Shown: piece by piece, positions 2,260 through 58,956 of the stretch | Layout: every line of letters starts with the position of its first letter | How positions within the stretch are numbered: the first letter of the stretch is position 1 | Source of the DNA: Candidatus Xenobia bacterium | GTDB taxonomy: Bacteria; Vulcanimicrobiota; Xenobia; Xenobiales; QWHO01 | Length of the DNA stretch: 64,000 nucleotides | Direction: 5' to 3' | Assembly: GCA_045863235.1 (NCBI GenBank) | Contig: BTUM01000019.1 | Location: 18,691-82,690, forward strand | Program-made: the position numbers and the translations under genes | Notes under the pieces: model-generated | Told to the model about the DNA's origin: nothing | Seen by the model: the letters and a program-made list of their open reading frames with translations, nothing else | The model's database searches: none

Positions 2260-2643
2260 TCAATCGAGCAGGGCCACGACCTCGATCTCGAGGCGAGCTC
2301 CCCGCGGCAGGCCGGCCACAGCCACCGTGGAGCGAGCCGGGGGCGGAACCGGCAGGTACTCTCCGTAGACCCGGTTGACCTCCGCGAAATCGTCCATCGT
2401 GACAAGGAAGATCACGGTCTTGACCACGCCCTCCAGAGAGCTTCCAGCCGCACCCAACACGGCCTTCAGATTCTCCATCACACGACGGGTCTGAGCCTCG
2501 AGGTCGCCCTCCACGAGCTGGCCGGTGGCCGGGTCGAGGGGGATCTGACCCGAACAGAACAGCAGGTTGCCGGCTCGCACGGCCTGCGAGTAAGGGCCAA
2601 TGGCGGCCGGAGCGTGGGGGGTGGAAACGGCGCTGCGGTTCAT
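2260..2643 (-). CDS. RidA/YjgF/TdcF family reactive-intermediate deaminase
   Basis: 127 aa. Carries the ...GPYSQAV..G.LLFCSGQIP... motifs and a C-terminal ...ARSTVAVAGLPRGARLEIE... segment typical of RidA. Confidence 0.85.
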   Translation of the reverse strand: MNRSAVSTPHAPAAIGPYSQAVRAGNLLFCSGQIPLDPATGQLVEGDLEAQTRRVMENLKAVLGAAGSSLEGVVKTVIFLVTMDDFAEVNRVYGEYLPVPPPARSTVAVAGLPRGARLEIEVVALLD

Positions 2644-8253: not shown

Positions 8254-8588
8254 TTCCCTCCTGTGACGCTCTTGATGATCTTGTTGACCGGCTTCTTGAC
8301 CGAGTCGGGCACGTGGGGCCAGGCGAAGTAGCCGCCCACCAGCAAGAGGATCAAGATCACCGTCTTGATCAGGGCCGCTCGCTGGCGCTCGGCTGCCAGG
8401 GCCGCCTCGTCGGCCCGCAGCTTGGCCATCTTCTCGGCCGAGGTAATGCTGTTCTGATGGCACTGATCGCTGCAGAACTTCCCCTCGGGCGTGGTGTAGG
8501 TGCACTCCTCGCAGATCGGCTTGAGGCACGATTTGCACTTGGTATCGGTCGGCCGCTCCTGGTGCTTGAGACAATGTGATTGTGCCAT
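8250..8588 (-). CDS. Zinc-ribbon (B-box / zf-HC2-like) single-pass membrane protein
   Basis: 112 aa. Cys/His cluster HCLKH..CKSCLKPICEEC...CSDQCH, then a coiled-coil stretch, then a TM helix ILILLLVGGYFAW and a short tail. TGA stop overlaps the GTG start of the downstream ATPase. Confidence 0.6.
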   Translation of the reverse strand: MAQSHCLKHQERPTDTKCKSCLKPICEECTYTTPEGKFCSDQCHQNSITSAEKMAKLRADEAALAAERQRAALIKTVILILLLVGGYFAWPHVPDSVKKPVNKIIKSVTGGK

Positions 8589-8591
8589 GCT

Positions 8592-10523: not shown

Positions 10524-10656
10524 ACCAGGGGAATGTTCTCAATCTCTCATGCCGGATCCTGCCCGTCAAAATGGCTTAAAAACTCGCATAACGGCCCCAG
10601 CTCTTGAATCGGGCTCAAAGCGGGAAACTCCGCCGAGGGTCCGAACTCCGCCCGCC

Positions 10657-11589
10657 ATGGCGAGCTTTCTGCTCAAGGAGCTGGCCCGGCGGGTGGAGGG
10701 GTCCGTGCTGGGCGATGGCGAGTTGACCATCACCTCGGTGAGCGGCCTGGAGGGCGTGCAGCCGGGCGGGCTGACTTTCATCGAGGAAGCCGGCCGGCTC
10801 GCGGAGGCCGAAACCAGCGGAGCGGTCGCCGTCATCGCCCCTCCGGATGTAGAGTCGAGCCACCTCGCCGTGCTGCGCACACCCCGACCGCGCGTCGCAT
10901 TCGCGCGCCTGTTGGCGCTCTTTCACCCCCGCCCGCCGGTGCACCCGCTCATCCATCCAACCGCCTTCATCCACCCGCAGGCGCGGGTGGCCGCCACCGC
11001 CCACATCGGTCCCTTCTGCTCAGTAGGAGCCGGGTCGGAGGTGGGCGAGGGTGTCGAACTGGTGGCCCGTGTCACCCTGGAAGAGGAAGTCATCCTGGAG
11101 AGGGGGGTCTGGCTGCAAGCCGGGGTGGTCGTCAAGCGGGGCGCGCGGCTTGGCCCGGAATGCTCTCTGTTACCCCACTCGGTGGTGGGTCCGAGGAGCG
11201 TTCTGGGCCCCCGAGTCGAGACGGGCGCTCGGGTCGTCATTGGAGCCGAGGTCAGCATCGGAGAAGGCAGCAAGCTGGATAACCTGGTCCTGGTAGGAGC
11301 TGGCTCGAAGTTGGGCCGCCACGTGCTGATGGTGGGACACAGTATGGTGCTGACCGGCTGCGAACTGGGCGACTACAGTGTCGTGGCCGCCCAGTCGGTG
11401 GTTCTGCCGGGCGTGAAGCTGGGGGCCCAGGTGCAACTCGCGGCTCGCTCCTTTGCCGATCAAGACCTTCCCAAAGCGGGCACCTACTCGGGCGACCCGG
11501 CCCAACCTCATCGTCAGGAGATGGTCTTCAAGGCCCTTCAGGGGAAGGCTGCCGAGCTCTGGCAGGGCTTAAAAAGGGTCCGCAGGTAA
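10657..11589 (+). CDS. lpxD: UDP-3-O-acylglucosamine N-acyltransferase
   Basis: Left-handed beta-helix hexapeptide repeats with the LpxD N-terminal domain (LKELARRVEGSVLGDGELTITSVSGLE..). Start taken at MASFLLKE. Confidence 0.8.
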   Translation: MASFLLKELARRVEGSVLGDGELTITSVSGLEGVQPGGLTFIEEAGRLAEAETSGAVAVIAPPDVESSHLAVLRTPRPRVAFARLLALFHPRPPVHPLIHPTAFIHPQARVAATAHIGPFCSVGAGSEVGEGVELVARVTLEEEVILERGVWLQAGVVVKRGARLGPECSLLPHSVVGPRSVLGPRVETGARVVIGAEVSIGEGSKLDNLVLVGAGSKLGRHVLMVGHSMVLTGCELGDYSVVAAQSVVLPGVKLGAQVQLAARSFADQDLPKAGTYSGDPAQPHRQEMVFKALQGKAAELWQGLKRVRR

Positions 11590-12313
11590 GGGCCAGCAGG
11601 ATCCAACCCAGAATCCCCGAGAGCGGATCGCCTGACAGGCCCCAGAACCAGGAGCTGTCCAACCGTCCCGGCGGGTCGACGATCTGGATGAAAACCCAGG
11701 TGGTGTGGACCCCGATGGCCATCCAGAGTGAGCCGGTTCGTTCGACCAGAAGAGCCAGGAAGATTCCGGCCAGCACCAGAGACACTCCGAAGGCCAGTTT
11801 CCACTCGGTTGTTCCAGGGCGAAACAGATGGAGAACCGCAAAGAAGAGGTTCACGCCCAGATAGGCGGCCGGTCGCCCCCACTCCTCGCGGGCCACCTGG
11901 AACAGGTAGCCGCGGAACACGACCTCCTCGGCGATGGCCATGAGCGGTGCCGCGATCAGCGCCGCCAGAAGGGGGGGATCGGGGGGCGGGGTCCAGCGAC
12001 CGAAGAGGGTTAAGATCAACCGCGAACCAACGATCATCCCCGTGCCCAGCAAGATTCCGGTGGTGAACAGGCGCACCCAGCCCGGGCGCATTGCCAGGCT
12101 GGCCGAGCCCGGCCGCGGACCCCAGCGCCGCCAGCTGTAGGAGGTGCTGAAGAGCAGCCAACAGTAAAGGGCGATCAGATAGCCGTCTTTCCAGGCGCGT
12201 GGCCCGTGGCGACTGAGCAAAATGGTGGGCTCGCCCAGAATCAGTCCCGGGATGAGCCAGGCCGCCACCCAGCCAACGGCCAGCAGACCCAGGAAAGCGC
12301 CGATCCGTTTCAA
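11528..12313 (-). CDS. CPBP (CAAX) family intramembrane metalloprotease
   Basis: Multiple TM helices, the EEVVFRGYLF motif and a downstream FxxxH motif. Its 3' end overlaps lpxD convergently. Confidence 0.75.
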   Translation of the reverse strand: MKRIGAFLGLLAVGWVAAWLIPGLILGEPTILLSRHGPRAWKDGYLIALYCWLLFSTSYSWRRWGPRPGSASLAMRPGWVRLFTTGILLGTGMIVGSRLILTLFGRWTPPPDPPLLAALIAAPLMAIAEEVVFRGYLFQVAREEWGRPAAYLGVNLFFAVLHLFRPGTTEWKLAFGVSLVLAGIFLALLVERTGSLWMAIGVHTTWVFIQIVDPPGRLDSSWFWGLSGDPLSGILGWILLALTCGPFLSPARARQPSPEGP

Positions 12314-13467
12314 GGAGGTGGTTGGCCGTGGGCCAGCGATTCTATCCAGGCCGCCATCCGGGCCGCGCCCCCCGGCGGACCCATGCGCTCACGTCCCACC
12401 GCGCCGCGCCGGTGACGCTCCTCAGGGTCGCGCAGCAGCCTGGACAGAGCGGCGACGATGACTTCGGGACGGTCCTCCACCACCTCCACAGCCTCCCCCA
12501 AGAGGCCCTTCTGGCGGAAACGATACCAGCTCATCCTCTTCTCGCCGCCGGGCCCGTAGGCAAGTACCGGCAACCCCTTGCCGGCGGCCTGCTCGTTTGC
12601 CGTTCCGGCCTGGCCCAGCACGAGCTGGCAGTGAGCCAGCACATCTCCCAGGACTCGCCGCACCAATAGCACGGAGGGCAGACCCTCCCGGCACAGCTCG
12701 CCCACCATGCCACGCTCGGTCGGAGAAGCATTCAGCTGCCACCCGGGGGGAACCAGCCGCTCCAATTGAAGACTATCAGCCACGACCACCACGGCCCGCG
12801 CCCGGTCGCCCCCCTGCCAGAGGAGCCCGTAGACGTCGAGCATCCGGGCCAGTTCGGCGTACGCCTCCACCCGGCTGCCCGGGAAGAGAGCTATCCAGGG
12901 CAAGTTGCCGTTGAGGGGCAGATCGATGCCGGTGGGCTCAAGAGCGTCCATCATCGGGTTTCCCACCCAGGCCGCTCGAATGCCCGCTCGACGCAGGTCG
13001 GCCGCGGTCGGCTCGTCGCGGGTCAGCACCCGATCGGCCAGTTGCCGCATAGCCAGTCGCTCGAACCAGGAGTAACGATGGTGGACGACCGACTTGGCGG
13101 TGCCGATGAAGAGGAGTGGTCGCAACCCTGCAAAGGCGTTGAGCAGGGCAAAGACATCTCCCACCACCACGAAGAGCTGGTACTGGCGCCGCACCTGGCG
13201 CAAGAAGCGAAACTGGCGCAAAAGCAGGGTGAGCAGACCACTGCGGAGATCGCGGGTGATGTGACTGAGCGGAGAATCGTTGACCAGCCCCCCGCTGGGC
13301 ATCGGAGCCTGGCGCGGTCCAACCAGCGGTAGCACGCCCTGATAAGCGGCTCCCTGACCCACCGTGGGCATGGCCTCAGCCTCGACCCGATTCAGACGCG
13401 ATCCGATCAAGCTGGCGATCGCATCCTCGCCGGCGCCGTTGGAGATGAACAGCACCCGGGGGCGCAT
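12310..13467 (-). CDS. Lipid-A-disaccharide synthase-related glycosyltransferase (LpxB-like paralog)
   Basis: 385 aa GT-B-like protein with an N-terminal VLFISNGAGEDAIA motif resembling the LpxB-related family. Distinct from the canonical lpxB at 16639-17802. Confidence 0.55.
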   Translation of the reverse strand: MRPRVLFISNGAGEDAIASLIGSRLNRVEAEAMPTVGQGAAYQGVLPLVGPRQAPMPSGGLVNDSPLSHITRDLRSGLLTLLLRQFRFLRQVRRQYQLFVVVGDVFALLNAFAGLRPLLFIGTAKSVVHHRYSWFERLAMRQLADRVLTRDEPTAADLRRAGIRAAWVGNPMMDALEPTGIDLPLNGNLPWIALFPGSRVEAYAELARMLDVYGLLWQGGDRARAVVVVADSLQLERLVPPGWQLNASPTERGMVGELCREGLPSVLLVRRVLGDVLAHCQLVLGQAGTANEQAAGKGLPVLAYGPGGEKRMSWYRFRQKGLLGEAVEVVEDRPEVIVAALSRLLRDPEERHRRGAVGRERMGPPGGAARMAAWIESLAHGQPPP

Positions 13468-14247
13468 TCAGGCCACCAGGGCTGGGGAGTGTAACCGATA
13501 CTCCAGTTGCCCTGACCCCAGACGCAACTCGGCCAAATAACGGCTGTGGCTCCCGGCCTGCACGATGGGTACTCCCCCCACCCGATGAGGCTCTTCCAGC
13601 ACGGTGTGGCTGTGGGCGCCTAAAATCAGGTCGACTCGGGGCAGTCGGGGCGCGATCCGGCAGTCCACCTCAAATCCCAGATGGGAAAGGAGCAAGACCA
13701 GGTCGCAACGCGGGCGCATCTCCTCCACCAACTGGGGCAGACAATCCTCGGGCTGAAAGAATCGTAGCCCGAAAAGGCGTTCCCACAGCGAGCCATGGGG
13801 ATACTGCACCACCGTGGCCCCGATCAGCCCCACTTTCAAATCCTCGACCTGAAACTCCAGCACCGATTGCCACAGATCGTGATGGGCGTTTCGCAGGTCG
13901 ATCAGGTTGGCGGCCAGCAAAGGAAAACGACGCTGGTCTCGACGCCAGCCCATCACCCGGCGCAGGTAATGGAGTTCGCGATTGCCCATGGCCATGGCGG
14001 CGAAGCCCAGCTCGCGCATCTGATCGAGGACCGGCTCATGACGCCGGTACACAGTGTTGGAGCCGCAGAGGGCATCGCCCCCATCCAGCAGCAGGGTGCG
14101 GGCGTCGCGCGGCTGGCGAGCCAGCAGGTCCAGACTGGCCGTCCGGCCATGCATGTCGTTGGTGTAGAGCAGCCTCAGGTCGGCCACATCAACCCCGGGA
14201 GAGCTTTCCGAGCACCAGGGGGAGTGAGGATCCGAGCAACCAGCCAA
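13468..14247 (-). CDS. Calcineurin-like metallophosphoesterase
   Basis: Metal-binding motifs LLYTNDMHGR, DGGD and GNRE. A possible GTG start at 14185-14187 overlaps the stop of the upstream gene. Confidence 0.7.
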   Translation of the reverse strand: MAGCSDPHSPWCSESSPGVDVADLRLLYTNDMHGRTASLDLLARQPRDARTLLLDGGDALCGSNTVYRRHEPVLDQMRELGFAAMAMGNRELHYLRRVMGWRRDQRRFPLLAANLIDLRNAHHDLWQSVLEFQVEDLKVGLIGATVVQYPHGSLWERLFGLRFFQPEDCLPQLVEEMRPRCDLVLLLSHLGFEVDCRIAPRLPRVDLILGAHSHTVLEEPHRVGGVPIVQAGSHSRYLAELRLGSGQLEYRLHSPALVA

Positions 14248-14767
14248 CGGCCGCGCCCAGAAACGACCCCGTAACTTGATACAGAGCCCAGCAACCGAGC
14301 GCCCCGCCGGCCCAATTCATGACGAAAGCCAGAGGGGAGAGAAAGATGGAGAAGCCCAGCGCCCCCCCCAGAAGTCCTCCCCCCAACCCCGACAGGGCGC
14401 CCGCTCCCAGGTTCAGCAGGCGACTCCCCAATACTGCCCCCTCCCAGGAGGCCAGGGCAAGCCCGGTCAGGGCGGGGGGAGCAGGCGGATTGAGATTGGC
14501 GCCGGTCAAGAAGGCAGCGAGAAACCCGCACAGACCGAATCCCACGATGGAAAGCAAGCGCTGGCCGGGGGTGATGCCGGGAGATCCGGCGGGCTGGTCC
14601 TGAACGCCTCCAATAGGGGCGTCCTCCTGCTCCTGGCCATCCTGTGCCAGTTGGGCTTCGAGCTCCTTGCGCTTGCGTTTCTTCTTGCTCACAGCACTGT
14701 CCCTGTCAAGCGCAGCTTCCAGAGCAGGATGCTCCAGGCCACGGTCAACCAGGCGAAGGTCGACCAC
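14189..14767 (-). CDS. Hypothetical Gly/Ala/Leu-rich membrane protein
   Basis: ORF with a charged N-terminus (KKKRKRKELEAQ) and then several hydrophobic glycine-rich segments. No recognisable family. Confidence 0.35.
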   Translation of the reverse strand: MVDLRLVDRGLEHPALEAALDRDSAVSKKKRKRKELEAQLAQDGQEQEDAPIGGVQDQPAGSPGITPGQRLLSIVGFGLCGFLAAFLTGANLNPPAPPALTGLALASWEGAVLGSRLLNLGAGALSGLGGGLLGGALGFSIFLSPLAFVMNWAGGALGCWALYQVTGSFLGAAVGWLLGSSLPLVLGKLSRG

Positions 14768-15273
14768 TCAAAACGTAGAGCCGTCTTGAGGCAGAAGGTG
14801 CCTTCCCCGCCGGACCAGCCGGTCAGGCGAGGCAGCAGGGCCGGCACGCTCCGGCAATACTGCTCATAGGTCTCGCCAAACTGCTTGCGCAAGAAGCCCT
14901 CTTCCAGCGGGATGATGGTCGTGTAGATGCCCGTGTGAATGCCAACCGCCGCCAGGAAGACCCAGGGACCCACCGAGCCCATGCCGGCTGTGGCCGCCAG
15001 GGCCACCCCGGCCCCGTTGAGCAGGTTGCCCAGATAGAGGGGATTGCGTAGATAGGAGTACGGCCCGGCGGTGATCAACCGGGGCGCGTCGAGGTACTGC
15101 CGGCGAGTGGGAAGCCCGGTGTAGCCCAGGGCCCACAGCCGGAGAAGCTCGCCCATGAAAGCCAGGCAGGCGCCCAGCATCAGGCCGGTCGGGCTGGGGC
15201 GGCTGTAGTAGAGCACCAGCACGCCGGTGACTCCGGCCAGGGCTCCTCTCCAACGAAACACAAATTCACGCAT
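14689..15273 (-). CDS. ICMT/PEMT-family membrane methyltransferase
   Basis: TM helices plus the C-terminal GPYSYLRNPLYLGNLL motif typical of isoprenylcysteine carboxyl methyltransferase-like enzymes. Start taken at the internal MREFVF. Confidence 0.7.
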   Translation of the reverse strand: MREFVFRWRGALAGVTGVLVLYYSRPSPTGLMLGACLAFMGELLRLWALGYTGLPTRRQYLDAPRLITAGPYSYLRNPLYLGNLLNGAGVALAATAGMGSVGPWVFLAAVGIHTGIYTTIIPLEEGFLRKQFGETYEQYCRSVPALLPRLTGWSGGEGTFCLKTALRFEWSTFAWLTVAWSILLWKLRLTGTVL

Positions 15274-16504
15274 ACTGCTTTGCCAGGGGCAGACCGAGGG
15301 TCTCGAGAATTTGGTCCGCCAGCCTTTCCCCCGCACCCGGAGCTCCCATCAGAACGCGCAACTCGCGGGAGAGCTGCGCGCGACGCTCGGAATCTCGAGC
15401 CAACTCCTCCAGAACGCTTATCAACGGCTCCAGAGAATCCTGCAAGAGCACCTCGGGAACCAGCTTGCGCCCGGCCCTGAGGTTCGGTTGCGCCACACCG
15501 TGGGGAAACCTCAAATACTCCCTCAGCCGGAGCTGTTCCTTCCAGGCTCCGAGAGGCATCAGGTCGAGCAGCCCCCCCAGGCCTCCGCGCGGGAGCGGAG
15601 CGCGAGTCGATAGAACCAGCACCATCGGGCATCCTGCGCAGGCGAGCTCAGCCGTATTCGTGCCCGGGATGGTCAGGGCCAGATCGAGCGCTCCCATCGA
15701 CTGGTGGGGCCTGCCCTGGGTCAGTGCGATCTCCAGGCCGGCGCGAGTTCTCAGGCTCTTCAGACCGAACTGGCCCGAGCTGCGCTCCAGTCCCAGGTCG
15801 ATGGGGTGGTCCAGTGCCTGTTGGGCGGCCGCCAGGCTGACGAAGGGCGAAAGAACCAGCAAGAACTGGAACTCCGGGTGGCTGCTGGTGAGCTTCTCAG
15901 CAACGCGCAAAAAGAGCGGCAGAGCGGCCCGCAGATGGACTGCGCGCGAGCCCGGGAAAAGTCCCAGCACGGGCCGGTCCATTGCCAGGCCCAGCGCCTG
16001 GCGCGCACCCTCCCGACTCTCGGGCAGGGACACACCGTCCACCATCAGGTTGCCCACGCAAACGATGCGCTGAGGGGCTACCCCGCGCGCGACCAGGGGG
16101 GCGACCAGCTCCGGACTGGGCACGGCCACACGCTGGAAAGCGCGGGCCTGACGGCTTGGGCGCACCGAGTAGGCCAGACCGGGCACGCCCCAGAGGTGGG
16201 CCAGACGGCCGGCCTGCCACAACTCTCCGCCCAGGAAGACGACAATGGCCTGCCTGGAAGGCCGGAAACCAGACATCCCCAGCAACAGGCGCAGAGTCTC
16301 TCGGGGAGCCAGGACGCTGGTCAAGCCAGGCAACTGGCCAGCATACTCCATTTCGCGACCGCTGGCATAAGGACAGGGAACCAGGGCCACGTGCAGACGA
16401 AGATCGCTCTGGCGAGCCAGCAGGGCCTGGCTGGTGACGCGCACCCACGAGGAGAGCTCGCCCGGCGAATTCGAGGTCATGATGATGTCGGGCATCGCGA
16501 GCAA
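15266..16504 (-). CDS. Lipid-A-disaccharide synthase-related glycosyltransferase (second LpxB-like paralog)
   Basis: 412 aa GT-B-like protein. N-terminus IIMTSNSPGELSSWV is analogous to the 12310-13467 paralog. Confidence 0.5.
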   Translation of the reverse strand: MLAMPDIIMTSNSPGELSSWVRVTSQALLARQSDLRLHVALVPCPYASGREMEYAGQLPGLTSVLAPRETLRLLLGMSGFRPSRQAIVVFLGGELWQAGRLAHLWGVPGLAYSVRPSRQARAFQRVAVPSPELVAPLVARGVAPQRIVCVGNLMVDGVSLPESREGARQALGLAMDRPVLGLFPGSRAVHLRAALPLFLRVAEKLTSSHPEFQFLLVLSPFVSLAAAQQALDHPIDLGLERSSGQFGLKSLRTRAGLEIALTQGRPHQSMGALDLALTIPGTNTAELACAGCPMVLVLSTRAPLPRGGLGGLLDLMPLGAWKEQLRLREYLRFPHGVAQPNLRAGRKLVPEVLLQDSLEPLISVLEELARDSERRAQLSRELRVLMGAPGAGERLADQILETLGLPLAKQYA

Positions 16505-16638
16505 TGTAGTGCATTTGCGGCCGCTTGTCGACCAGGCCCCAGCAGCTCCTCGCGGAATTCTGCATCACTCCGCCAGCAGTCCGGCTATCTTCGGAGGTGC
16601 TAGGGCATTGGCGCGGCGCCCCTACAGTGCTGAGCAGG

Positions 16639-17802
16639 TCAACGCGCGGGACTGTATCGACTCTGCAGGAGCCCTTCGACGTGGTCAGCCACCCGGCCGA
16701 TCACTCCTGGCTCACCCACCGAGGCCCGGGCCCGATCCAGGCACTCCAGCATGCGCTCGCGCTCCGGTCCCTCCTCAAAGAGCCGGATGGCCTCACGGAC
16801 CAGGTTCTCGGGGGTGGCCGTGGTCTGCAAGAACTCCGGCATCACGTCCTCGTCGAGCACCAGGTTGACCAGGCCGAAACGGTCCACCCGCATCAGCTTG
16901 AGGCGGCGCAGCAACCGATAGAGGGCCCAGTCGAAAGAGCTGCCTTTATAGAAAACCACGTGGGGAATGCGCAGGAGAGCCGCCTCCAGGCTGGCCGTTC
17001 CGCTGGTAATCAGGGCCACGCGCGAAGCGGCCAGAGCCTCCCTCGCCTGGCCCTGCAAGACGTGAAGATAGGGCGGCGTGGTGCCCAATTGCCGGGCCAG
17101 AAACGGCGCCAGCCGGGGGGTGGCGCAGGGGATCAGGAACTTCACGTCCGGATAGCGCTGACGCAACAGAGCGGCCGCCTCGAGCAATACCGGAGTCAGA
17201 TAGCGCAGTTCCTGGATGCGGCTCCCGGGTAGCAACGCGACATAGCGGCCGGGCTTCAGTCCCAGGGCCTGCTGGGCCTGTTCCAGCGGTCGGGGGGGAC
17301 CGATGATATCCACCAGCGGATGGCCGAAAAAGCCAACCTCCAGACCGTTCTTGCGGTACTGCTCGGCATTGAAGCGAAAGGCCGTCACCACGCTGGTAAC
17401 CCGCTGGTGGATCTGGTGAAGTCTCTTTGAGCTGCGGGTCCACTGAGAAGGCGGGAAGTAATACATCGTCCTGATCCCGTGCCGCTGTGCAAACCCCGCC
17501 AACCGGTAGTGGGCGGCCGGACTGTCGATCACGATCAGCAGGTCAGGGCGCACCTCGAGCAGCAGTTTGCGCATCTTCCGGTAGGCAAGCAGCAAGGTGG
17601 GGATCAGCCCGATGGCGGCGCTCGGACCGATCACGCCCCAACCGGTGCTGTCGATGAAAACCTCGACTCCGGCCGCCCTCATGGAGTGTCCTCCCGCACC
17701 GAGAATGCGCATCTGGGGGTGACGACGCTTCAATTCGGCGGCCAGAGCGGCGGCCTGCAGATCGCCCGAAGGCTCGGCCGTGCTGATGACCAGCGTGCTC
17801 AC
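16639..17802 (-). CDS. lpxB: Lipid-A-disaccharide synthase
   Basis: N-terminal ISTAEPSGDLQAA motif (the LpxB AGExSGD box), GT19 fold, about 387 aa. Confidence 0.85.
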   Translation of the reverse strand: MSTLVISTAEPSGDLQAAALAAELKRRHPQMRILGAGGHSMRAAGVEVFIDSTGWGVIGPSAAIGLIPTLLLAYRKMRKLLLEVRPDLLIVIDSPAAHYRLAGFAQRHGIRTMYYFPPSQWTRSSKRLHQIHQRVTSVVTAFRFNAEQYRKNGLEVGFFGHPLVDIIGPPRPLEQAQQALGLKPGRYVALLPGSRIQELRYLTPVLLEAAALLRQRYPDVKFLIPCATPRLAPFLARQLGTTPPYLHVLQGQAREALAASRVALITSGTASLEAALLRIPHVVFYKGSSFDWALYRLLRRLKLMRVDRFGLVNLVLDEDVMPEFLQTTATPENLVREAIRLFEEGPERERMLECLDRARASVGEPGVIGRVADHVEGLLQSRYSPAR

Positions 17803-17930
17803 GGGCTTGAGGAGAAGGTGAGAGTGACCATCCCGCGCCTTGACCCGGGCTGAATTTGCACGCGCGCGACTGGGGACAATCTGTTGAACGACGCCGCGCC
17901 AATTCCTGAAGGGGTCAACGCACGGCGCCT

Positions 17931-18755
17931 TTAGACCCCGGCGGCTTCGGCCGCCAGAGTGCGGCCGTTGATGCCCTGACCCTCGCGGCGAATGCAGACG
18001 CCCTGTCGGGAGGGGTTCTCGAGGAATCGGATCAGGTGCCCGGTTTCGTTATTGGAAGGAATGGTACGGCGCATGGCATCGACGGCCTGGGACAAATTGA
18101 GGCCCGAACGCAGCATCAACTGGTAGCACCGTTTGAGGTCGTGGCGCACCTCGCGGGGGATCCCTCGTCGCTGCATACCGCGGATGTTCATCCCGTAAAT
18201 GCGGGCCGGTTGCCCGTCTACCAGAGAGAAGGGGGGCACGTCCTGGATGACCTTGGCCAGGCCGCCCACCATGGCCAGTCGGCCGATGCGAACGAACTGG
18301 TGGAAGCCACTCATTCCCCCGAGCACGGCCTGATCTTCCACGTCCACGTGGCCGGCCAGTCCAACCGAGTTGGCGATGACGATCTGGTTGCCCAGCGTGC
18401 AGTTATGAGCCACGTGCGTATAGGCCATAATCAGGTTGTCGTCGCCGATGGAGGTGACGCCCTCGGGCTCATAGGCGCGATGAATGGTGACATACTCACG
18501 GATGATGTTGCGGTCGCCCAGGCGAGTATACGCACGGTCGCCACTGTAGCGAAGGTCTTGAGGAGCCACCCCGATGACCGCACCGGGCCAGATCTCGTTC
18601 TCCTGGCCGATCTCGGTCCACTCCCCGATCACGACCGAGGAGTGGATGCGGGTGCCACGACCGACCTTCACGTTGGCGGATACAATGGAGAACGGACCCA
18701 CCTCGACGTCTTCGCCAAGTTGGGCCCCCGGATCGACAATTGCCGAGGGATGCAC
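17931..18755 (-). CDS. lpxA: Acyl-ACP--UDP-N-acetylglucosamine O-acyltransferase
   Basis: MHPSAIVDPGAQLGEDVEVGPFSIV hexapeptide beta-helix and the LpxA C-terminal helical domain. Confidence 0.9.
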   Translation of the reverse strand: MHPSAIVDPGAQLGEDVEVGPFSIVSANVKVGRGTRIHSSVVIGEWTEIGQENEIWPGAVIGVAPQDLRYSGDRAYTRLGDRNIIREYVTIHRAYEPEGVTSIGDDNLIMAYTHVAHNCTLGNQIVIANSVGLAGHVDVEDQAVLGGMSGFHQFVRIGRLAMVGGLAKVIQDVPPFSLVDGQPARIYGMNIRGMQRRGIPREVRHDLKRCYQLMLRSGLNLSQAVDAMRRTIPSNNETGHLIRFLENPSRQGVCIRREGQGINGRTLAAEAAGV

Positions 18756-18783
18756 TCTAGTCAGAGCAGCGCCACTCCTCTCG

Positions 18784-19812
18784 CTAACCCGCTAACGCGA
18801 TCAAATCTTTCGGCAGCGGAGCCTTGGACTTGACGATTTTCATTCGGGCCAGAACCTGCATTGCAAGCTCAAGTGCTCGTTTGCCATCCTCGCCGGTCAC
18901 CAGCGGGGTTTTGTGGGTGGCCACGCAGTCGGCAAAGTGACTCAATTCGAGGCGAAGCGGCTCTTTCTTCTCAAGCTGGACAAACTCGGGAGCCATCGGA
19001 TAACCGTTGGAGGGTGGGCGCAGAATGGACAAATTCTGGTTGATGAAGTCGAGGCAGAGTGTCCGGCCCGAGTCTTCGGTGACCTTCAGTTGACGCAACC
19101 GCTCTCCGCTTACCCGGCTGGCCATCAGGCTGGCGGCGGTTCCGTTCTTGAAGAGCAGATGCACCTGGGCGATGTCCTCGAAGTCGGAGTAGACGGACAC
19201 GCCCACCGCATTGATCTCCACCACGGGCGAATTGACCAGGTTGATGAGGATATCCAGGTCGTGGATCATGAGGTCCCAGACAACCCCCACGTCGAGGTTC
19301 CGGTTGGTCGGGTAGGAGAGTCGGTGCGACTCGAGGTGAATGGGCCGACCCAGGACTTCGCGCAGTTTGCCCACCGCAGGATTGAAGCGCTCCAGGTGGC
19401 CCACCTGAAGCACCAGGTTGCGCTTCTTGGCGTAGTCCACCAGGCGCTTGGCCTGAATCAGATCCACGGTGATGGGTTTCTCCACCAGAACGTGAATGTC
19501 GCGAGCCAGAAACTCCATGGCCAGCTCGTAATGAAAGATGGTGGGGGCAACGATGTTCACGGCTTCGACCCGCTCGAACAGGTCGCGGTAGCTGTTGAAG
19601 AACTGGGTATGAAACCGGTCCGAGCAGATGCGACCGCGGGCCTCGTTGACATCGACGACGCCGACCAGCTCGGTCTGGGGAAGCTCGGAATAGACCCGGG
19701 CATGGTGCACGCCCATGTTCCCGATGCCCACCACTCCCACTTTGACCGGTTCCAAGACTTTGCGCCTCCTTCGTCCTGAGGCCCCGCTCCTCAACGGCGA
19801 ATCCCTTGCCAC
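18784..19812 (-). CDS. Gfo/Idh/MocA family NAD(P)-dependent oxidoreductase
   Basis: Rossmann VKVGVVGIGNMG near the N-terminus, the Gfo/Idh/MocA EKP motif (VLVEKPI) and a C-terminal alpha/beta domain. The true start may be an internal GTG. Confidence 0.8.
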   Translation of the reverse strand: MARDSPLRSGASGRRRRKVLEPVKVGVVGIGNMGVHHARVYSELPQTELVGVVDVNEARGRICSDRFHTQFFNSYRDLFERVEAVNIVAPTIFHYELAMEFLARDIHVLVEKPITVDLIQAKRLVDYAKKRNLVLQVGHLERFNPAVGKLREVLGRPIHLESHRLSYPTNRNLDVGVVWDLMIHDLDILINLVNSPVVEINAVGVSVYSDFEDIAQVHLLFKNGTAASLMASRVSGERLRQLKVTEDSGRTLCLDFINQNLSILRPPSNGYPMAPEFVQLEKKEPLRLELSHFADCVATHKTPLVTGEDGKRALELAMQVLARMKIVKSKAPLPKDLIALAG

Positions 19813-19894
19813 TCGCGGGAGTGCCCCGCAAGATCTGCTGGTCGAGTATTTCCCAAAACTTCGCCGGATGCCAGGGAGATCCTGTTAAAATCCT

Positions 19895-20374
19895 TCACGA
19901 TTTTGTGACCGTTCCGCCATCCAGGGCGCCTGGAGAAAGCCCTGCTCCGACACTCACGGGCACGGTCTGGGAATTTGAATGCGCTTCCAGAGTAAAATCG
20001 CCCTGCATGGCCGTCTTCTCTTCAACCAGCGCCTGACACCGCAGCCGATAGCGCTCTCCTTCCCGTTCAAGCAACTCGACCTGCAGGTCGAGTCGGTCGC
20101 CCGGAACGACCTGGCGCCGGAATTTCAGGCGCTCGATGCGCACCACTCGAAAGCCACGGCCCAGGAAGATCCAGGCCAATTGCAGCAGGCTCTCGATTTG
20201 CAGCACCCCGGGCATAACCGGAAAGTGCGGAAAATGGCCCCGAAAGTACGGCTCATTGATGGTGACGTTCTTGTAGCCGGTAGCGCGTTTCTCGTCAAGC
20301 TCCAGAACCCGATCCAAGAGCAGGCATGGGTAACGGTGGGGCAACCTCTTCCTGATTTCGCTCATCTCCAACAT
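19895..20374 (-). CDS. fabZ: 3-hydroxyacyl-ACP dehydratase
   Basis: LPHRYPCLLLDRV..EPYFRGHFPHFPVMPGVL hot-dog fold motifs. Confidence 0.9.
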   Translation of the reverse strand: MLEMSEIRKRLPHRYPCLLLDRVLELDEKRATGYKNVTINEPYFRGHFPHFPVMPGVLQIESLLQLAWIFLGRGFRVVRIERLKFRRQVVPGDRLDLQVELLEREGERYRLRCQALVEEKTAMQGDFTLEAHSNSQTVPVSVGAGLSPGALDGGTVTKS

Positions 20375-21200
20375 CGGTCGGGTCCTCCTTCAGTACTTTG
20401 CCCACCAACTCGACATGCAAGCGGTGGCCGGCCTTGACCGCCACCACCCGGGCCATCAGATCGCATCCAAGCAGTGCCAGATCCCCCACCAGGTCAAGAC
20501 ACTTGTGACGCACGGGCTCGTCGGGAAAACGAAGCTCTGAGGTGTAGCCGTCGGAACGGATCACCAGAGCGTTGGACAGATCTCCCCCCCTGGCCAGACC
20601 CCTCTCGAGCAGGGCCTCGACCTCCTCCATGAAGCCATAGGTGCGAGCCGCAGCCAATCCTGAGAGGAAGCTCTCCGGGGTAGGCGTGTGATGAACCTGC
20701 TGGTAGGTGATCATCGGATGCTGATAATGCAGCGAATACTCCAGCCGCGCCTCGGCCGCAGGCAGAGCCAGCACCAGGGCGTTCTCGTCGCCCACCCAGA
20801 GAGGTCGCGTCAGCACGTGCCGGCAGGCGGGCCGCTCCTGGCCAACGACGCCGACGGCCAGAAAGGCCTCCGCGAACGGCAGAGCAGAGCCGTCCAGAAT
20901 GGGCACCTCAGGGCCCTCGATCAAGATGCGGAGGTTGTCGAGTCGAAGACCCGCGCAGGCGGCCAGCAAATGCTCGACGGTGCTGACCGAAACCCCCCCG
21001 GCCGAGAGCACGGTGCAGCGCTCGACTGAGCTCACCCGGGCGTGCAAGGCGGGGATCTCCTGACCGTGACGAACGAACACCCGACCGGAGTCGACGGGAG
21101 CCGGCAGTACTTCAACCCGGGCCAACTGGCCCAGGTGAATGCCCACCCCCTCGAAGCGCACCGGGGCAGCCAGTGTTTGCTGGGGCCTGCTCACTTCCAT
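20295..21200 (-). CDS. lpxC: UDP-3-O-acyl-N-acetylglucosamine deacetylase
   Basis: QQTLAAPVRFEGVGIHLGQ N-terminus and HxxEH-type zinc motifs (VEHLLAACAG). Start taken at the internal MEVSRPQQTL. The 3' end overlaps the fabZ start by about 70-80 nt in a different frame. Confidence 0.85.
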   Translation of the reverse strand: MEVSRPQQTLAAPVRFEGVGIHLGQLARVEVLPAPVDSGRVFVRHGQEIPALHARVSSVERCTVLSAGGVSVSTVEHLLAACAGLRLDNLRILIEGPEVPILDGSALPFAEAFLAVGVVGQERPACRHVLTRPLWVGDENALVLALPAAEARLEYSLHYQHPMITYQQVHHTPTPESFLSGLAAARTYGFMEEVEALLERGLARGGDLSNALVIRSDGYTSELRFPDEPVRHKCLDLVGDLALLGCDLMARVVAVKAGHRLHVELVGKVLKEDPTDVGDERNQEEVAPPLPMPALGSGSGA

Positions 21201-22999
21201 TCGGTCCCTCCCGGAACTTGCAGAGGACCGGAGGTAGTCGGCTCGCCCTGCCCCGTCACGTCGTGCCATTGCAGTTCGGCCGGGTAACTCGAGGAGGCCT
21301 CGGGGAAGGTCAGCAGACGCACGACCTTCTTTTCGCCCGGCCCCAGGTCGAAGTGGCGAACCAGGCTTGGCGGAGCGCCTTGCGGCTTGCGAAAGGGGGT
21401 TTCATAAACCTTGCCGTCGATGAGAAACGAGCCGGCGGCGGGTCCGTTCAGAGGCAGAAAATAGAGACCCACCCGGACCGGGAAGGGGCGCGGATTGATC
21501 AGTGTCGTCTCCAGCCGATAAAACACCCCGAAATTGCCGGTGTTGGGCAACCCGGTTTCGAAGTCGATCAGCCAGGGATCTTCTCCGAAGCGCACCCCGA
21601 CCGGGGCTCCCCCGGTGCGAAACTCGAGCTCTTCTTCGAAATATGGCTGGGCAAAGACGCCGTGGGGGTGAATCTTGAAAGGGTTGAAGGGGGCGCCCAG
21701 GTGGGGCAACTTCTTACCGTCGTTGAAGCTGGGGGCCAGCTCGGTGCGCACTTCGACCTCCAGCGACTCGCCTTCCAGAATGCGGAGGTTGGCAAAGCCG
21801 GTCACCAGAGCCTGGGTGCCAACCTCATGGGCAGCCAGCTCCAGCTTCGTCCGCGGCGGCATGGTGAGCACGTAACCAGCGCCGTCCCCCTCTTGCTCGA
21901 GAAATCGCGTGGCCGAGGTGTGCCCTACCAGAACCTCGTTCCGACTCGGACCAGCGTACAGCGTGTTGACCAGCACCTTGACTGCCTGGTCGTTGGGGTT
22001 CTCCAGATTGACCCACAGGTTGCGCTTGCCTTTGGAGATGTTTTTATGGCTGTACATCAGCCGGCTGGGCTCTTTCTGGCTGAACTTGTATTGCAGCAGG
22101 ACCCCATCCACGTCAACGAGTTCGGGGCGATTGGAGACCAACAGCAAGTTGGCCTCGACCGGCTCGACGTCCAGGCTGCTGACCACAACGGGCAGGCTCC
22201 TGGCGACAGGATAATAATCCTCGCTGCCTTCGATCTTGATAGGCACGGTCAGTCGCATCATCTGGCCGCGCGGGACGGAAGGGAGCTCGCTCAAATCCCC
22301 CCCCACGCTCATCACACAGCCCGGACGCACCCGGGCCTGCACATAGGCTTCCCGCAAGACCCCTTCGGCCACCACCGCGCCCGGGGCTGGATTGCCCACC
22401 ACCTGGACGTTGACCACCTCGGGCAAGGTTCCGGCCCAGTCCTTGACGTGGACGAAGAGATAGGCCTGACCCTGGCCTCGACGCACCTTCAAGCGGGTCT
22501 TGCCCACCCGCGATCCGGTCAGGGTCAAGAGCCCGGTCTCATCGACCGCAGCCTGGACCACCCCGTTGGCGTCCTCCACCTCGATGGGCCCTTCGGCCAG
22601 GCCGGTCACCTCGATCGTGCGCGCCTCGCCAACGGGCATAACCACTCGCCCGGGAGAAAGTCGCACCAACCCATCGGCGACCAGCTCGTGCAGGTTGTTG
22701 GCCCAGCGCAGAGCCAGCTTGAGGGGGTCGCTCTGGTTGGCCGCGGCCATGCTCCTGGTGACCTCGACGATCAGCACCCCGCCCCAGAGAATGGTGGCGC
22801 CATTCTTACTCTTGACGACCTTGATGCCTTCGGGGTCGGCCCCTCGCTCGAGTTGCGCTTCGATGCGCCGGGACACGGCTTCGGCCTGCTCGGCGCTTTC
22901 CAGTCGCATCACGACTCGATCGCCCAGAGTGACTTCCTGGGCCAGACCAGGCAAAGCCAGGGCCAGGAAAAAGACCATAACCAGGACCCGAACGCTCAC
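21191..22999 (-). CDS. Secreted hypothetical protein (602 aa) embedded in lipid A cluster
   Basis: Signal peptide MSVRVLVMVFFLALALPGLAQE. No recognisable enzymatic motifs. Beta-rich composition. Confidence 0.55.
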   Translation of the reverse strand: MSVRVLVMVFFLALALPGLAQEVTLGDRVVMRLESAEQAEAVSRRIEAQLERGADPEGIKVVKSKNGATILWGGVLIVEVTRSMAAANQSDPLKLALRWANNLHELVADGLVRLSPGRVVMPVGEARTIEVTGLAEGPIEVEDANGVVQAAVDETGLLTLTGSRVGKTRLKVRRGQGQAYLFVHVKDWAGTLPEVVNVQVVGNPAPGAVVAEGVLREAYVQARVRPGCVMSVGGDLSELPSVPRGQMMRLTVPIKIEGSEDYYPVARSLPVVVSSLDVEPVEANLLLVSNRPELVDVDGVLLQYKFSQKEPSRLMYSHKNISKGKRNLWVNLENPNDQAVKVLVNTLYAGPSRNEVLVGHTSATRFLEQEGDGAGYVLTMPPRTKLELAAHEVGTQALVTGFANLRILEGESLEVEVRTELAPSFNDGKKLPHLGAPFNPFKIHPHGVFAQPYFEEELEFRTGGAPVGVRFGEDPWLIDFETGLPNTGNFGVFYRLETTLINPRPFPVRVGLYFLPLNGPAAGSFLIDGKVYETPFRKPQGAPPSLVRHFDLGPGEKKVVRLLTFPEASSSYPAELQWHDVTGQGEPTTSGPLQVPGGTEWK

Positions 23000-23919
23000 T
23001 GGCGATCTCCCAGCAGGCGCTCGAGCTCCTTGAGCGCCTGCGGCAGCCGGTGAAGAGCGGCATACACCTCGACCGCTTCCTTCCTGTCACGCCCCGGGTA
23101 CCCGGCCAGAACCGCGCCCGGAGGCACCTTCTTACGCATCGAGCCGCAACGCGGCAAAAGCTCGACCCCGTCACCAAGCTCTACATGGCCGAGAGTTCCG
23201 CTCTGCCAGCCCAGACGGCAATCCTGCCCGATGTGGGCCGAACCGGGCAGGCCAACCTGCTCGCCGATGACGGTCCGGTCGCCAACCTGGACGTTGTGAC
23301 CGATCTGAGTCAGGCTGCCAATCCTCACCTCGCGGCCGATCCGGGTGGTCGTGGTGGTGGCCCGGTCGATGCACACACCGGACTCGATGACCGAGTCGTC
23401 GCCGACCTCCACCAGACCCACCTGAGGAATCTTGAGGTGCTGGCCCTGGTCCACCACGTAGCCGTAACCGTCGCTGCCCAGAATGGCACCCGAGGCCACT
23501 CGAACCCTGCGACCCAGGCGCACTCCTTGCATCAGCACGGCCCCCGGCTCGAGCAAGCACTCCTCGCCGACCTCAACGCCGGCGGCGACGAAACAGCACG
23601 GCCCGACCAGCACGCGGTCACCCAGGCGAGCACCGGGCTCGACCACGGCCCCGGCTCCGACGGTAACCCCCTCGCCCAACCAGGCCTCGGCCGACACGGC
23701 TGCTCCCGGCACCAGGGTGAGACAGTCTCTGAGACGCTGGTAAAGCTGCTCGTCGCCCTGGAGCTCGACCCCCACGGTAGCGTCCCCACCTGTGCTGCCA
23801 GGAGGACCCAGCCCCCCCGGGCGGGCTCCCAGGCAGCTGATGCGCAGTTCGGGCTGGTCGGTAGTAGCGCCGAATTCTCGGGCCAGATCGACCAGACGCC
23901 AGGGTGGACCGTTTAGCAA
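22996..23919 (-). CDS. lpxD: UDP-3-O-acylglucosamine N-acyltransferase paralog
   Basis: Hexapeptide beta-helix with the LpxD C-terminal helix. This is the second LpxD-family gene in the window. Confidence 0.8.
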   Translation of the reverse strand: MLNGPPWRLVDLAREFGATTDQPELRISCLGARPGGLGPPGSTGGDATVGVELQGDEQLYQRLRDCLTLVPGAAVSAEAWLGEGVTVGAGAVVEPGARLGDRVLVGPCCFVAAGVEVGEECLLEPGAVLMQGVRLGRRVRVASGAILGSDGYGYVVDQGQHLKIPQVGLVEVGDDSVIESGVCIDRATTTTTRIGREVRIGSLTQIGHNVQVGDRTVIGEQVGLPGSAHIGQDCRLGWQSGTLGHVELGDGVELLPRCGSMRKKVPPGAVLAGYPGRDRKEAVEVYAALHRLPQALKELERLLGDRQ

Positions 23920-23946: not shown

Positions 23947-24390
23947 CTACTTCTGGTTCAGCTTGATGAGGATGTCGGTGGTCACATTCTCACCGCTCGT
24001 GTACTGCACGGCGGGCAGATGCATGGTATCGATCACGACCACGTCCAGCCCCCGCTCGCGGGCCACCTGCTCGGAAGCCTGGGTGATGCGCCGGTAGGCG
24101 TCTTCGTAAAACTTGCTCGAGCGAGCCTGCCACGACTTGGAGGCCCGCTGGATGCGGTCGTTGAGGTCCTTCAGCTTCCGCTTGTCAAACTCTTCCCTGG
24201 ATTGGGGAATGCTGGAGAGAAAGCTCCCCGTCTCCGCTGCCCAACTCAAGTTCATGTCACGAAACTCGGGCATCTCGCTGACCACACGCTCGGTATTGAC
24301 GACGCCGACCTTCAGCTTGCGCGGCTCGCCCTGACCGCAACCGACGACCAGCAACACCAGGCTCAAGAGGACGGCTCTGGTCATGCTCAT
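23947..24390 (-). CDS. OmpH/Skp family periplasmic chaperone (lipoprotein-type signal)
   Basis: 147 aa. Signal with LLVVGCG lipobox. OmpH-like N- and C-terminal motifs (KVGVVNTERV ... LDVVVIDTMHL). Confidence 0.75.
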   Translation of the reverse strand: MSMTRAVLLSLVLLVVGCGQGEPRKLKVGVVNTERVVSEMPEFRDMNLSWAAETGSFLSSIPQSREEFDKRKLKDLNDRIQRASKSWQARSSKFYEDAYRRITQASEQVARERGLDVVVIDTMHLPAVQYTSGENVTTDILIKLNQK

Positions 24391-24875
24391 TTCTTCTTCT
24401 CGGGCGCCTTCGGCGGAGTTTGCTGGAGTTTGAGCTCCAGGTCCTGGGTGATGCTCACCGCGCCATACTCCACGGTGGGATAGCCAGGCGTGTCCACCAA
24501 CACGAGGTCGATGCCCTTATCCTTGCTGACCGCCTCGGCCGCCTCGCTGATGTGCGCGAAACGGGTCTTGAGGAACTCCTGAGTCTTGGTGAACCACTTC
24601 TTGTCCAGCTCGGCATTCATCTGGCGGAACTTGCTCAGATCGGTCTGGCTAAGATTGCTCGGGCCTCCGGCCTCGCGAATGCGGGCGTTGATCTTCTTCT
24701 GCAACTCGACCCGGGCCTTGGCATAGTCGCTGGCCATCTTCTGATAATCCGGGTCGCTCTGCACCAGCGAAACGGTGTTCACAGTTCCGGTCGTCAATTT
24801 GCCCGTGGGGCTGCAACCGACCAGAGCCAACAGCCCCAGCGCCACCCCCAACAATGCCGTGCGTTTCATAAACAT
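24387..24875 (-). CDS. OmpH/Skp family periplasmic chaperone (lipoprotein-type signal)
   Basis: 162 aa. Signal LLALVGCS. Motifs TGTVNTVSLV ... IDLVLVDTPGYP and a Lys-rich tail. Confidence 0.75.
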   Translation of the reverse strand: MFMKRTALLGVALGLLALVGCSPTGKLTTGTVNTVSLVQSDPDYQKMASDYAKARVELQKKINARIREAGGPSNLSQTDLSKFRQMNAELDKKWFTKTQEFLKTRFAHISEAAEAVSKDKGIDLVLVDTPGYPTVEYGAVSITQDLELKLQQTPPKAPEKKK

Positions 24876-58954: not shown

Positions 58955-58956
58955 GC

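Follow-up and report, generated by a model that had tools for sequence, protein, structure and literature searches.

Described Systems and the Locus under Study

Lipid A built on 2,3-diamino-2,3-dideoxyglucose (GlcN3N) carries amide-linked 3-acyl chains and depends on the GnnA/GnnB pathway, which is described for Acidithiobacillus ferrooxidans, Leptospira, Campylobacter, and rhizobia. GnnA is a uridine diphosphate (UDP)-N-acetylglucosamine (UDP-GlcNAc) 3-dehydrogenase of the Gfo/Idh/MocA type, and its partner GnnB is an aminotransferase of the DegT type. Here we describe a lipid A (Raetz pathway) operon that contains a GnnA orthologue. It lies on a 64,000-nucleotide stretch of contig BTUM01000019.1 (hereafter, the window) and belongs to an uncultured bacterium of the Eremiobacterota (Vulcanimicrobiota, formerly WPS-2).

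Other described systems are also relevant to this locus. Leptospira has two lpxD genes and extra lpxB genes (lpxB1/lpxB2), and the lipid A 1-phosphate methyltransferase LmtA of Leptospira interrogans belongs to the ICMT/Ste14 group. For Francisella, activity is described for the two LpxD enzymes, which add different chain lengths. The UDP-2,3-diacylglucosamine hydrolases LpxH, LpxI, and LpxG are independent of one another; LpxG was reportedly identified by complementation of E. coli lpxH. A preliminary description of this DNA called the gene cluster Leptospira-like. The list of parts is indeed similar (GnnA, an ICMT-type methyltransferase, two lpxD genes, extra lpxB genes), but orthology turned out to hold for GnnA only. 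Its more general conclusion, a non-enterobacterial lipid A chemistry, is a fair one. On balance, we favor the explanation that a GnnA-containing operon directs the synthesis of GlcN3N lipid A and, more tentatively, that it includes an accessory lipid A methyltransferase, a candidate hydrolase, and an LpxD function divided between two proteins.

Operon Organization and Host

The genes of the window (G+C about 64%) were mapped from a listing of open reading frames, codon-position G+C, and family scans. One tightly packed operon occupies the minus strand from about 11.5 to 30 kb, the gaps between its genes being very short or replaced by overlaps. Transcription runs from bamA through four skp genes, lpxD, a gene for a protein of 602 amino acids (aa), lpxC, fabZ, the Gfo/Idh/MocA gene, lpxA, and lpxB. 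These are followed by an LpxB-like gene, a methyltransferase gene, a gene for a small membrane protein, a metallophosphoesterase gene, a TIGR03492 gene, and a CPBP protease gene. The operon encodes LpxA, LpxC, LpxB, and FabZ together with the GnnA orthologue, and its LpxB-family genes number three: lpxB itself, the LpxB-like gene at 15266-16504, and the TIGR03492 gene at 12310-13467. Family scans found no LpxH, LpxI, LpxK, WaaA, or DegT gene within the 64 kb window, and a scan for promoters and terminators yielded nothing above chance.

The preliminary description had listed a canonical core lpxD-lpxC-fabZ-lpxA-lpxB. All of these genes are present in one operon, although the 602-aa gene separates lpxD from lpxC. 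It had also placed a Gfo/Idh/MocA oxidoreductase between fabZ and lpxA and an ICMT-family membrane methyltransferase inside the cluster, and both are where it put them (18784-19812 and 14689-15336, respectively). The two LpxD paralogs that it named do exist; the second, however, lies on the plus strand at 10549-11589, almost wholly outside the range assigned to the cluster. The genes for the metallophosphoesterase, the small membrane protein, and the CPBP protease do not figure in that description.

Related contigs and metagenome loci that were compared with the window are labeled here with L-numbers. An identical gene order is found on contigs whose proteins are 87-98% identical to those of the window (L001, L094-L096). 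At least nine independent contigs from related organisms repeat the order of the operon genes, so the arrangement is not due to chance. Hundreds of homologues of the oxidoreductase occur in metagenome-assembled genomes, and the named ones belong to Candidatus Eremiobacteraeota, Vulcanimicrobiota, or Candidatus Bruticola, with a small number from Armatimonadota; the nearest carry the label Candidatus Eremiobacteraeota or Vulcanimicrobiota. The phylum is placed in the Terrabacteria (kingdom Bacillati).

The GnnA Orthologue

18784-19812, minus strand: GnnA orthologue (UDP-GlcNAc 3-dehydrogenase, Gfo/Idh/MocA), NF040723 258 bits; real start probably near 19755, since its homologues are 323 aa long

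The best NCBIfam model for the oxidoreductase is UDP-N-acetylglucosamine 3-dehydrogenase (NF040723; E 1e-76), followed by inositol dehydrogenase with 114 bits. The score of 258 bits is below the cut-off of 450 bits set for NF040723, which is an archaeal model. Among all solved structures, 7bvj/7bvk (A. ferrooxidans GnnA) are the best match with 186 bits, and the next Gfo/Idh/MocA structure reaches 75 bits. The protein and 7bvj are 36.6% identical in an alignment of 298 residues. A preprint that used 7bvj as a modeling template names this structure as GnnA.

The protein carries the Pfam domain GFO_IDH_MocA (the N-terminal NAD-binding Rossmann domain) and C-terminal domains. The EKP and D-x3-H motifs are present as VEKP and DLMIHDLD, both identical to those of 7bvj. 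An alignment of A. ferrooxidans GnnA with six DegT-linked homologues defined 54 invariant positions, and the window protein retains every one of them (54/54). The ratio of nonsynonymous to synonymous substitution rates (dN/dS) is 0.016 and 0.012 in comparison with two close relatives and 0.079 with a farther one, the lowest values in the operon. The oxidoreductase gene is a functional gene by these sequence measures, and its product is a GnnA orthologue, a predicted NAD-dependent UDP-GlcNAc 3-dehydrogenase. The preliminary description had called the enzyme GnnA-like. The profile search against GnnA bears this out, as do the best structural match, the conserved residues, and the DegT gene that stands beside the orthologue in sister lineages.

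The locus thus compares with the described GnnA/GnnB systems as follows. The solved protein to which the window enzyme is most closely related is A. ferrooxidans GnnA, the gene sits inside an lpx cluster, and a DegT-Gfo pair is found in sister lineages. Unlike in those systems, there is no GnnB partner in the cluster of the window or in its 64 kb, and the host belongs to a Terrabacteria (Bacillati) phylum.

The Aminotransferase Partner and the Lipid A Sugar

17931-18755, minus strand: lpxA, Pfam Hexapep and Acetyltransf_11; LpxA structures in the PDB match with up to 231 bits

In sister lineages, a DegT/DnrJ/EryC1 aminotransferase gene lies directly between fabZ and the Gfo gene, immediately upstream of the latter. 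The order fabZ-DegT-Gfo-lpxA was found in L003, L007, L089, L090, L112, L119, and L124, and the short contig L008 shows DegT-Gfo-lpxA-lpxB. Judging from this position, the DegT-Gfo genes of the sister lineages are a predicted GnnB-GnnA pair in the same slot. When compared with NCBIfam and the PDB, the DegT of sister loci is placed only as a generic sugar aminotransferase, there being no GnnB model or structure among the references. Separately, L092 contains a solitary DegT-Gfo/Idh/MocA pair (8001-10038) that stands away from any lipid A gene and adjoins a phosphoenolpyruvate mutase-like gene.

The partner aminotransferase, GnnB, has left the cluster in the lineage of the window and would be encoded elsewhere in the genome. 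Two observations speak for relocation rather than loss. In L091 (GCA_021107945.1, Eremiobacterota), the order at 7564-10071 is fabZ-DegT-lpxA with no Gfo/Idh/MocA gene in between, which is the mirror of the window arrangement. In Mesorhizobium loti, gnnA and gnnB are unlinked, and Mesorhizobium is listed among the genera that make GlcN3N (PMC5644692). If GnnB is indeed encoded elsewhere, the organism would make the 3-amino product UDP-GlcNAc3N, and its lipid A would be built at least partly on GlcN3N with amide-linked 3-acyl chains. Given the probable relocation of GnnB and the very strong selection on GnnA, we consider a GlcN3N lipid A fairly probable.

Several results weigh against this reading. 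No DegT-type gene, nor a remnant of one, occurs anywhere in the 64 kb window, and DegT is likewise absent at four further loci of the same cluster type (L001, L004, L006, and L093). Homologue searches with the DegT proteins of L007 and L008 revealed, among the best 120 matches, no clade attributable to the DegT-less genomes and no match on the large contigs that carry the cluster type of the window, including a scaffold of 1.16 Mb; being drawn from the best 120 matches, this is weak evidence of absence. The clades checked consisted of DegT genes within other lipid A clusters or of DegT-Gfo pairs elsewhere. A scan of genome contigs with a GnnB alignment gave, among the matches listed, just generic DegT genes of unrelated phyla. 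Furthermore, the sequence of LpxA does not discriminate between the use of UDP-GlcNAc and UDP-GlcNAc3N: its best match among solved structures scores 231 bits, and 3hsq, the GlcNAc3N-specific Leptospira enzyme, scores 213 bits.

These absences (the window, five independent loci of its cluster type in all, and the best 120 matches) would also be expected if GnnB had been lost rather than moved. The organism would then make ordinary glucosamine (GlcN) lipid A, and the GnnA homologue would be repurposed for another nucleotide sugar or for a 3-keto sugar used elsewhere. The absence of DegT is also accompanied by further rearrangements (a split LpxD and added genes). However, the oxidoreductase keeps all GnnA-invariant positions, shows the lowest dN/dS of the operon, and still occupies the exact slot between fabZ and lpxA. 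The reverse split in L091, where DegT was retained and the Gfo gene moved away, and the unlinked M. loti genes (PMC5644692) argue for relocation as well. We regard the loss of GnnB as unlikely. It also leaves the 3-keto product without transamination, and to our knowledge such a product has no use.

A Metallophosphoesterase with a GNRE Motif

13468-14247, minus strand: stand-alone metallophosphoesterase of the 5′-nucleotidase/UshA type with GNRE instead of GNHE; real start probably near 14190

12310-13467, minus strand: TIGR03492, "lipid-A-disaccharide synthase-related protein", 259 bits (cut-off 219)

The nearest relatives of the metallophosphoesterase are 5′-nucleotidase, UshA, and SoxB, and a profile search of the PDB gave CD73 at 1e-27 and UshA at 5e-24. 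The metal ligands and Arg90 (D31, H33, D58, N89, R90, H189, H212, and H214) do not vary among seven orthologues. The change of His to Arg in the GNH(D/E) block is stated to be unique to LpxH among metallophosphoesterases, and in LpxH that arginine forms a salt bridge with the phosphate of lipid X (PMC5016852, PMC3087551). The enzyme seems to be cytosolic, like the LpxH step, since neither a signal peptide nor a membrane segment is predicted.

The TIGR03492 gene always lies directly downstream of the metallophosphoesterase gene in lpx clusters. A literature search found no paper that mentions the TIGR03492 family. L122 and L128 have clusters without GnnA (bamA...lpxD-lpxC-fabZ-lpxA-lpxB) that nevertheless end with lpxB-metallophosphoesterase-TIGR03492; therefore, the pair is independent of the GlcN3N genes. 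A metagenome scan retrieved 80 loci of the metallophosphoesterase family. The gene is beside lpxB, TIGR03492, or other lpx genes in 35 of them, beside kdsD, kdsC, and ArnT-like transferase genes in 38, and beside both in 1 (74/80). When only loci with at least 1.5 kb of flanking sequence are considered, 61 of 63 have lpx or kds neighbors. GNRE is present in 78 of the 80 loci, a count that is a product of locus selection because the scan pattern itself contained GNRE; the neighborhoods are not so affected.

About 38 metagenome loci (e.g., L163:6507-11861 and L132:5316-7629) carry distant members of the GNRE family with 32-39% identity. Their gene order is conserved: kdsD (SIS and CBS domains), kdsC (HAD family), the metallophosphoesterase gene, and two genes for PMT_2/ArnT-like transferases.

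Tentatively, the cytosolic metallophosphoesterase may cleave UDP-2,3-diacyl-GlcN(3N) to the lipid X analogue needed by LpxB. It resembles LpxH in being a binuclear metallophosphoesterase of about 240 aa that is predicted to be cytosolic, is encoded in a lipid A cluster, and has Arg in place of His in the GNH(D/E) block. It differs in belonging to the 5′-nucleotidase/UshA branch and in being undetected by LpxH models and structures. Since the protein is outside the LpxH family, the arginine would be convergent. We propose, with less than even confidence, that the enzyme came from another branch of the superfamily and is a candidate UDP-2,3-diacylglucosamine hydrolase. Still more tentative is the joint proposition that it is a fourth independent hydrolase after LpxH, LpxI, and LpxG and that LpxD is split into cooperating catalytic and uridine-binding subunits.

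This assignment has to be set against the results of the searches. LpxH structures gave no match at E≤10 in the profile search; no LpxH model matched at E≤0.01, and LpxG likewise was unmatched by sequence. A classical LpxH, LpxI, or LpxG could be encoded elsewhere in the genome. The metallophosphoesterase would in that case be a nucleotide or UDP-sugar hydrolase, or a phosphatase acting on lipid A or on 3-deoxy-D-manno-oct-2-ulosonic acid (Kdo), and we treat this as a realistic alternative. It agrees with the overall resemblance to 5′-nucleotidase and to the N-domains of UshA rather than to LpxH, and with the half of the metagenome loci in which the gene is beside kdsD, kdsC, and ArnT-like transferase genes instead of lpxB. 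It does not readily explain why all metal ligands are retained, why the protein is predicted to be cytosolic like the LpxH step, or why the gene directly follows lpxB in lipid A clusters where LpxH, LpxI, and LpxG are not seen. Another point against it is that UshA itself splits UDP-sugars at the same bond. A further point against another function is the invariant change of His to Arg, reported as unique to LpxH (PMC5016852, PMC3087551).

Two Complementary LpxD-Like Proteins

22996-23919, minus strand: LpxD1, NF002060 220 bits (cut-off 207), profile positions 105-337 only

10549-11589, plus strand: LpxD2, Pfam LpxD N-domain, NF002060 165 bits (below the cut-off of 207); real start probably 10657

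The two proteins were compared in an alignment that included E. coli LpxD and the one LpxD that sister lineages have. LpxD1 aligns with residues 101-338 of E. coli LpxD (138 bits) and keeps the catalytic left-handed beta-helix with the GxDGFGY...KIPQxG loop and the catalytic His (QIGHN), as well as the C-terminal helices. Of the uridine-binding N-domain, about 67 aa are left in the window and in L001, and nothing in the orthologues of L004 and L006 (236-237 aa). LpxD2 has the full uridine-binding N-domain; it lacks the catalytic His, a second His, and the 19-aa active-site loop GxDGFGY...KIPQxG. Neither protein therefore unites in one chain the uridine-binding N-domain, the C-terminal helices, and a beta-helix that carries the catalytic His, as a full LpxD does. 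These complementary losses occur together in the three lineages where both genes are seen (the window, L001, and L004), and one complete LpxD is present in all four loci that show both DegT and LpxD genes. Both halves of LpxD2 have dN/dS of 0.11-0.15; being under purifying selection throughout, the gene is not a pseudogene.

The LpxD2 gene is convergent with the operon and overlaps its last gene by 62 bp at the 3′ end. The segment that LpxD2, on the plus strand, shares with the CPBP protease gene, on the minus strand, is at 11528-11589 of the window. In L001 the two genes overlap convergently as well, by 122 bp.

Two lpxD-like genes per genome are also found in Francisella and Leptospira. In contrast to the Francisella pair, in which both enzymes are reportedly active, the two copies of the window each lack a different essential part. 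The preliminary description had linked the paired LpxD to mixed or amide-linked acylation. This is not supported, as the paralogues, each having lost a different essential part, are not two active enzymes. Instead, the LpxD function may be divided between a catalytic LpxD1 without the uridine-binding domain and a non-catalytic LpxD2 that has it. A mixed LpxD1/LpxD2 trimer, which the two proteins may form, is an attractive explanation of the sequence data.

Whether the two proteins cooperate is close to an even call. LpxD1 could function alone in the manner of LpxA, with LpxD2 being a pseudoenzyme or an unrelated acyl- or acetyltransferase. UDP-sugar binding by LpxA-type enzymes needs no uridine-binding domain, which is in line with this possibility. 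So are the location of the LpxD2 gene on the opposite strand, the failure to find it within 10 kb in L006, and its faster evolution (identity to L001 of 65% for LpxD2 vs. 77% for LpxD1). The losses, however, are exactly complementary. They co-occur in all three lineages where both genes are seen, in contrast to the DegT-bearing loci with their one complete LpxD, and purifying selection acts on LpxD2 in its two halves alike.

The Membrane Methyltransferase and the LpxB-Like Protein

14689-15336, minus strand: membrane methyltransferase of the ICMT/PEMT superfamily, Pfam PEMT 41.5 bits; real start probably 15273 (194 aa)

15266-16504, minus strand: LpxB-like paralogue, similar to LpxB in its nucleotide-binding half only; TIGR00215 59 bits over residues 148-297

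16639-17802, minus strand: lpxB (canonical lipid A disaccharide synthase), TIGR00215 241 bits (cut-off 190)

The methyltransferase has the polytopic membrane core of the ICMT/PEMT type, with the motifs GPY..RNP.Y.G and EE..L...FG and predicted hydrophobic segments. Its best NCBIfam model is TIGR04571 (LmtA) with 55 bits, followed by generic ICMT with 32 bits. LmtA is likewise the top NCBIfam family for four orthologues (42-67 bits). An exhaustive search over 1.84 billion representatives gave 7984 relatives at E≤0.001. The LmtA profile matches every one of the nearest 150, the best E-value being only 4.5e-36.

The gene lies between lpxB-family genes and the metallophosphoesterase gene in dozens of loci. 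In L089 (609 aa), L090, and L093 (587 aa) the methyltransferase is fused to the C-terminus of an LpxB-like protein, and 3 of those 150 representatives bear an LpxB-type domain. In L004, LpxB itself is the fusion partner of the LpxB-like protein (762 aa). The position of the gene and the fusions to the LpxB-like domain tie the methyltransferase to lipid A, and it can reasonably be taken for an enzyme that methylates lipid A. Together with the LpxB-like protein, the enzyme may act on a lipid A intermediate, the likeliest target being a phosphate, as for LmtA; with respect to the phosphate, this is only an analogy.

The scores on the LmtA model count against a closer relationship. The value of 55 bits is far below the cut-off of 325 bits, none of the 150 nearest representatives has a real LmtA-like score, and 143 of them match ICMT too. 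Since the scores are so far below the cut-off, the enzyme is not an LmtA orthologue. The LmtA-like label of the preliminary description is weakly supported: LmtA is the best named family in the profile search, but at such low scores. The window enzyme and LmtA share a superfamily of small polytopic membrane methyltransferases. They differ in that the former is associated with an LpxB-like domain, to which it is fused in relatives; we know of no such link for LmtA.

It is quite possible that the protein does not methylate the lipid A phosphate and is a generic ICMT/PEMT enzyme, only carried along with the cluster, whose target is something else (e.g., a protein, a phospholipid head group, or a sugar-acid carboxyl). 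Its orthologues reach only 42-67 bits on the LmtA model, the Pfam assignment is PEMT, the nearest relatives match ICMT without being true LmtA by score, and the gene is missing from the simplest cluster type (L003 and L007). What a generic enzyme does not account for is that LmtA is consistently the best named family, that several lineages have the fusion to the LpxB-like domain, and that the location between lpxB-family genes and the metallophosphoesterase gene is repeated so often.

With respect to the LpxB paralogues, the window resembles Leptospira (lpxB1/lpxB2) and the TIGR03492 family in having extra LpxB-family genes beside the canonical LpxB. It differs in having two kinds of them, one associated with the methyltransferase, the other with the metallophosphoesterase.

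Other Genes of the Operon and the Window

27453-30005, minus strand: bamA, Pfam Omp85 and POTRA repeats, at the head of the outer-membrane/lipid A block

26318-27250, 24880-26304, 24387-24875, and 23947-24390, minus strand: four tandem Skp/OmpH-like chaperone genes, Pfam OmpH, with orthologues in related loci

21191-22999, minus strand: conserved 602-aa protein of no known family, with an N-terminal hydrophobic segment resembling a signal peptide

20295-21269, minus strand: lpxC, Pfam LpxC 295 bits; real start probably near 21197

19895-20374, minus strand: fabZ, Pfam FabA-like domain

14189-14767, minus strand: small glycine-rich membrane protein with a basic (lysine/arginine-rich) N-terminus; real start probably 14692 (167 aa)

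11528-12313, minus strand: CPBP/Rce1-like intramembrane protease, the last gene of the operon, Pfam Rce1-like 63.5 bits

The bamA gene is in the same position in L001, L003, L004, L006, L007, L089, and L091. Beside it, on the opposite strand, is a gene for a BamB-like PQQ beta-propeller protein (30267-31373, plus strand). Among the four Skp/OmpH-like genes that follow bamA, one encodes a protein of 474 aa with a long extra N-terminal region; in related lineages these genes number three or four.

The window copy of the 602-aa protein matches no Pfam or NCBIfam family. Its orthologues (33-77% identity) fill the slot between lpxD and lpxC in all related loci, and two of them show a weak match to DUF3370, a cyanobacterial family. 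The dN/dS of the gene is 0.03-0.04. It was considered as a second LpxD and rejected, because the protein has no hexapeptide repeats.

The gene for the small membrane protein lies just upstream of the metallophosphoesterase gene. Hydrophobic segments are predicted for its product, its dN/dS is 0.07-0.11, and in L001, L003, L004, L006, and L007 the slot is held by a gene for a protein of 110-191 aa. Orthologues of the CPBP protease are present in L001, L006, L094-L097, and L114.

Some other genes of the window also deserve mention. A Ser/Thr protein kinase gene directly follows a GAF-adenylate/guanylate cyclase gene at 47913-50338 (plus strand), the stop and start of the two overlapping. A second kinase gene, at 8592-10523, flanks the lipid A operon, and its position is conserved in L001 and L094-L096. 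At 2640-4342 (minus strand), genes for a MobA-like nucleotidyltransferase and a GHMP kinase overlap and could be a sugar-activation pair. A membrane acyltransferase of the Acyl_transf_3 (OafA) type is encoded at 58858-60045 (plus strand).

Implications

GlcN3N lipid A is known chemistry, and what would be new here is its predicted occurrence in an unstudied phylum. A literature search found no study on the lipid A of Eremiobacterota. The GNRE metallophosphoesterase, the split LpxD, and the LpxB-like/methyltransferase fusions make the operon a variant with directly testable predictions.

The structure of lipid A governs the stability of the outer membrane and recognition by innate immunity. The strongly selected GnnA orthologue predicts an amide-linked (GlcN3N) lipid A in a widespread soil phylum. 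If the proposed role of the metallophosphoesterase is true, the enzyme would fill the hydrolase step, to which no enzyme is assigned in Eremiobacterota or in the other lineages that have the family beside lpxB or kdsD-kdsC. It is a concrete and readily tested candidate for a step whose gene remains unknown in many bacteria. The split LpxD and the LpxB-like/methyltransferase fusions may serve as testable leads on the assembly and evolution of lipid A enzymes.

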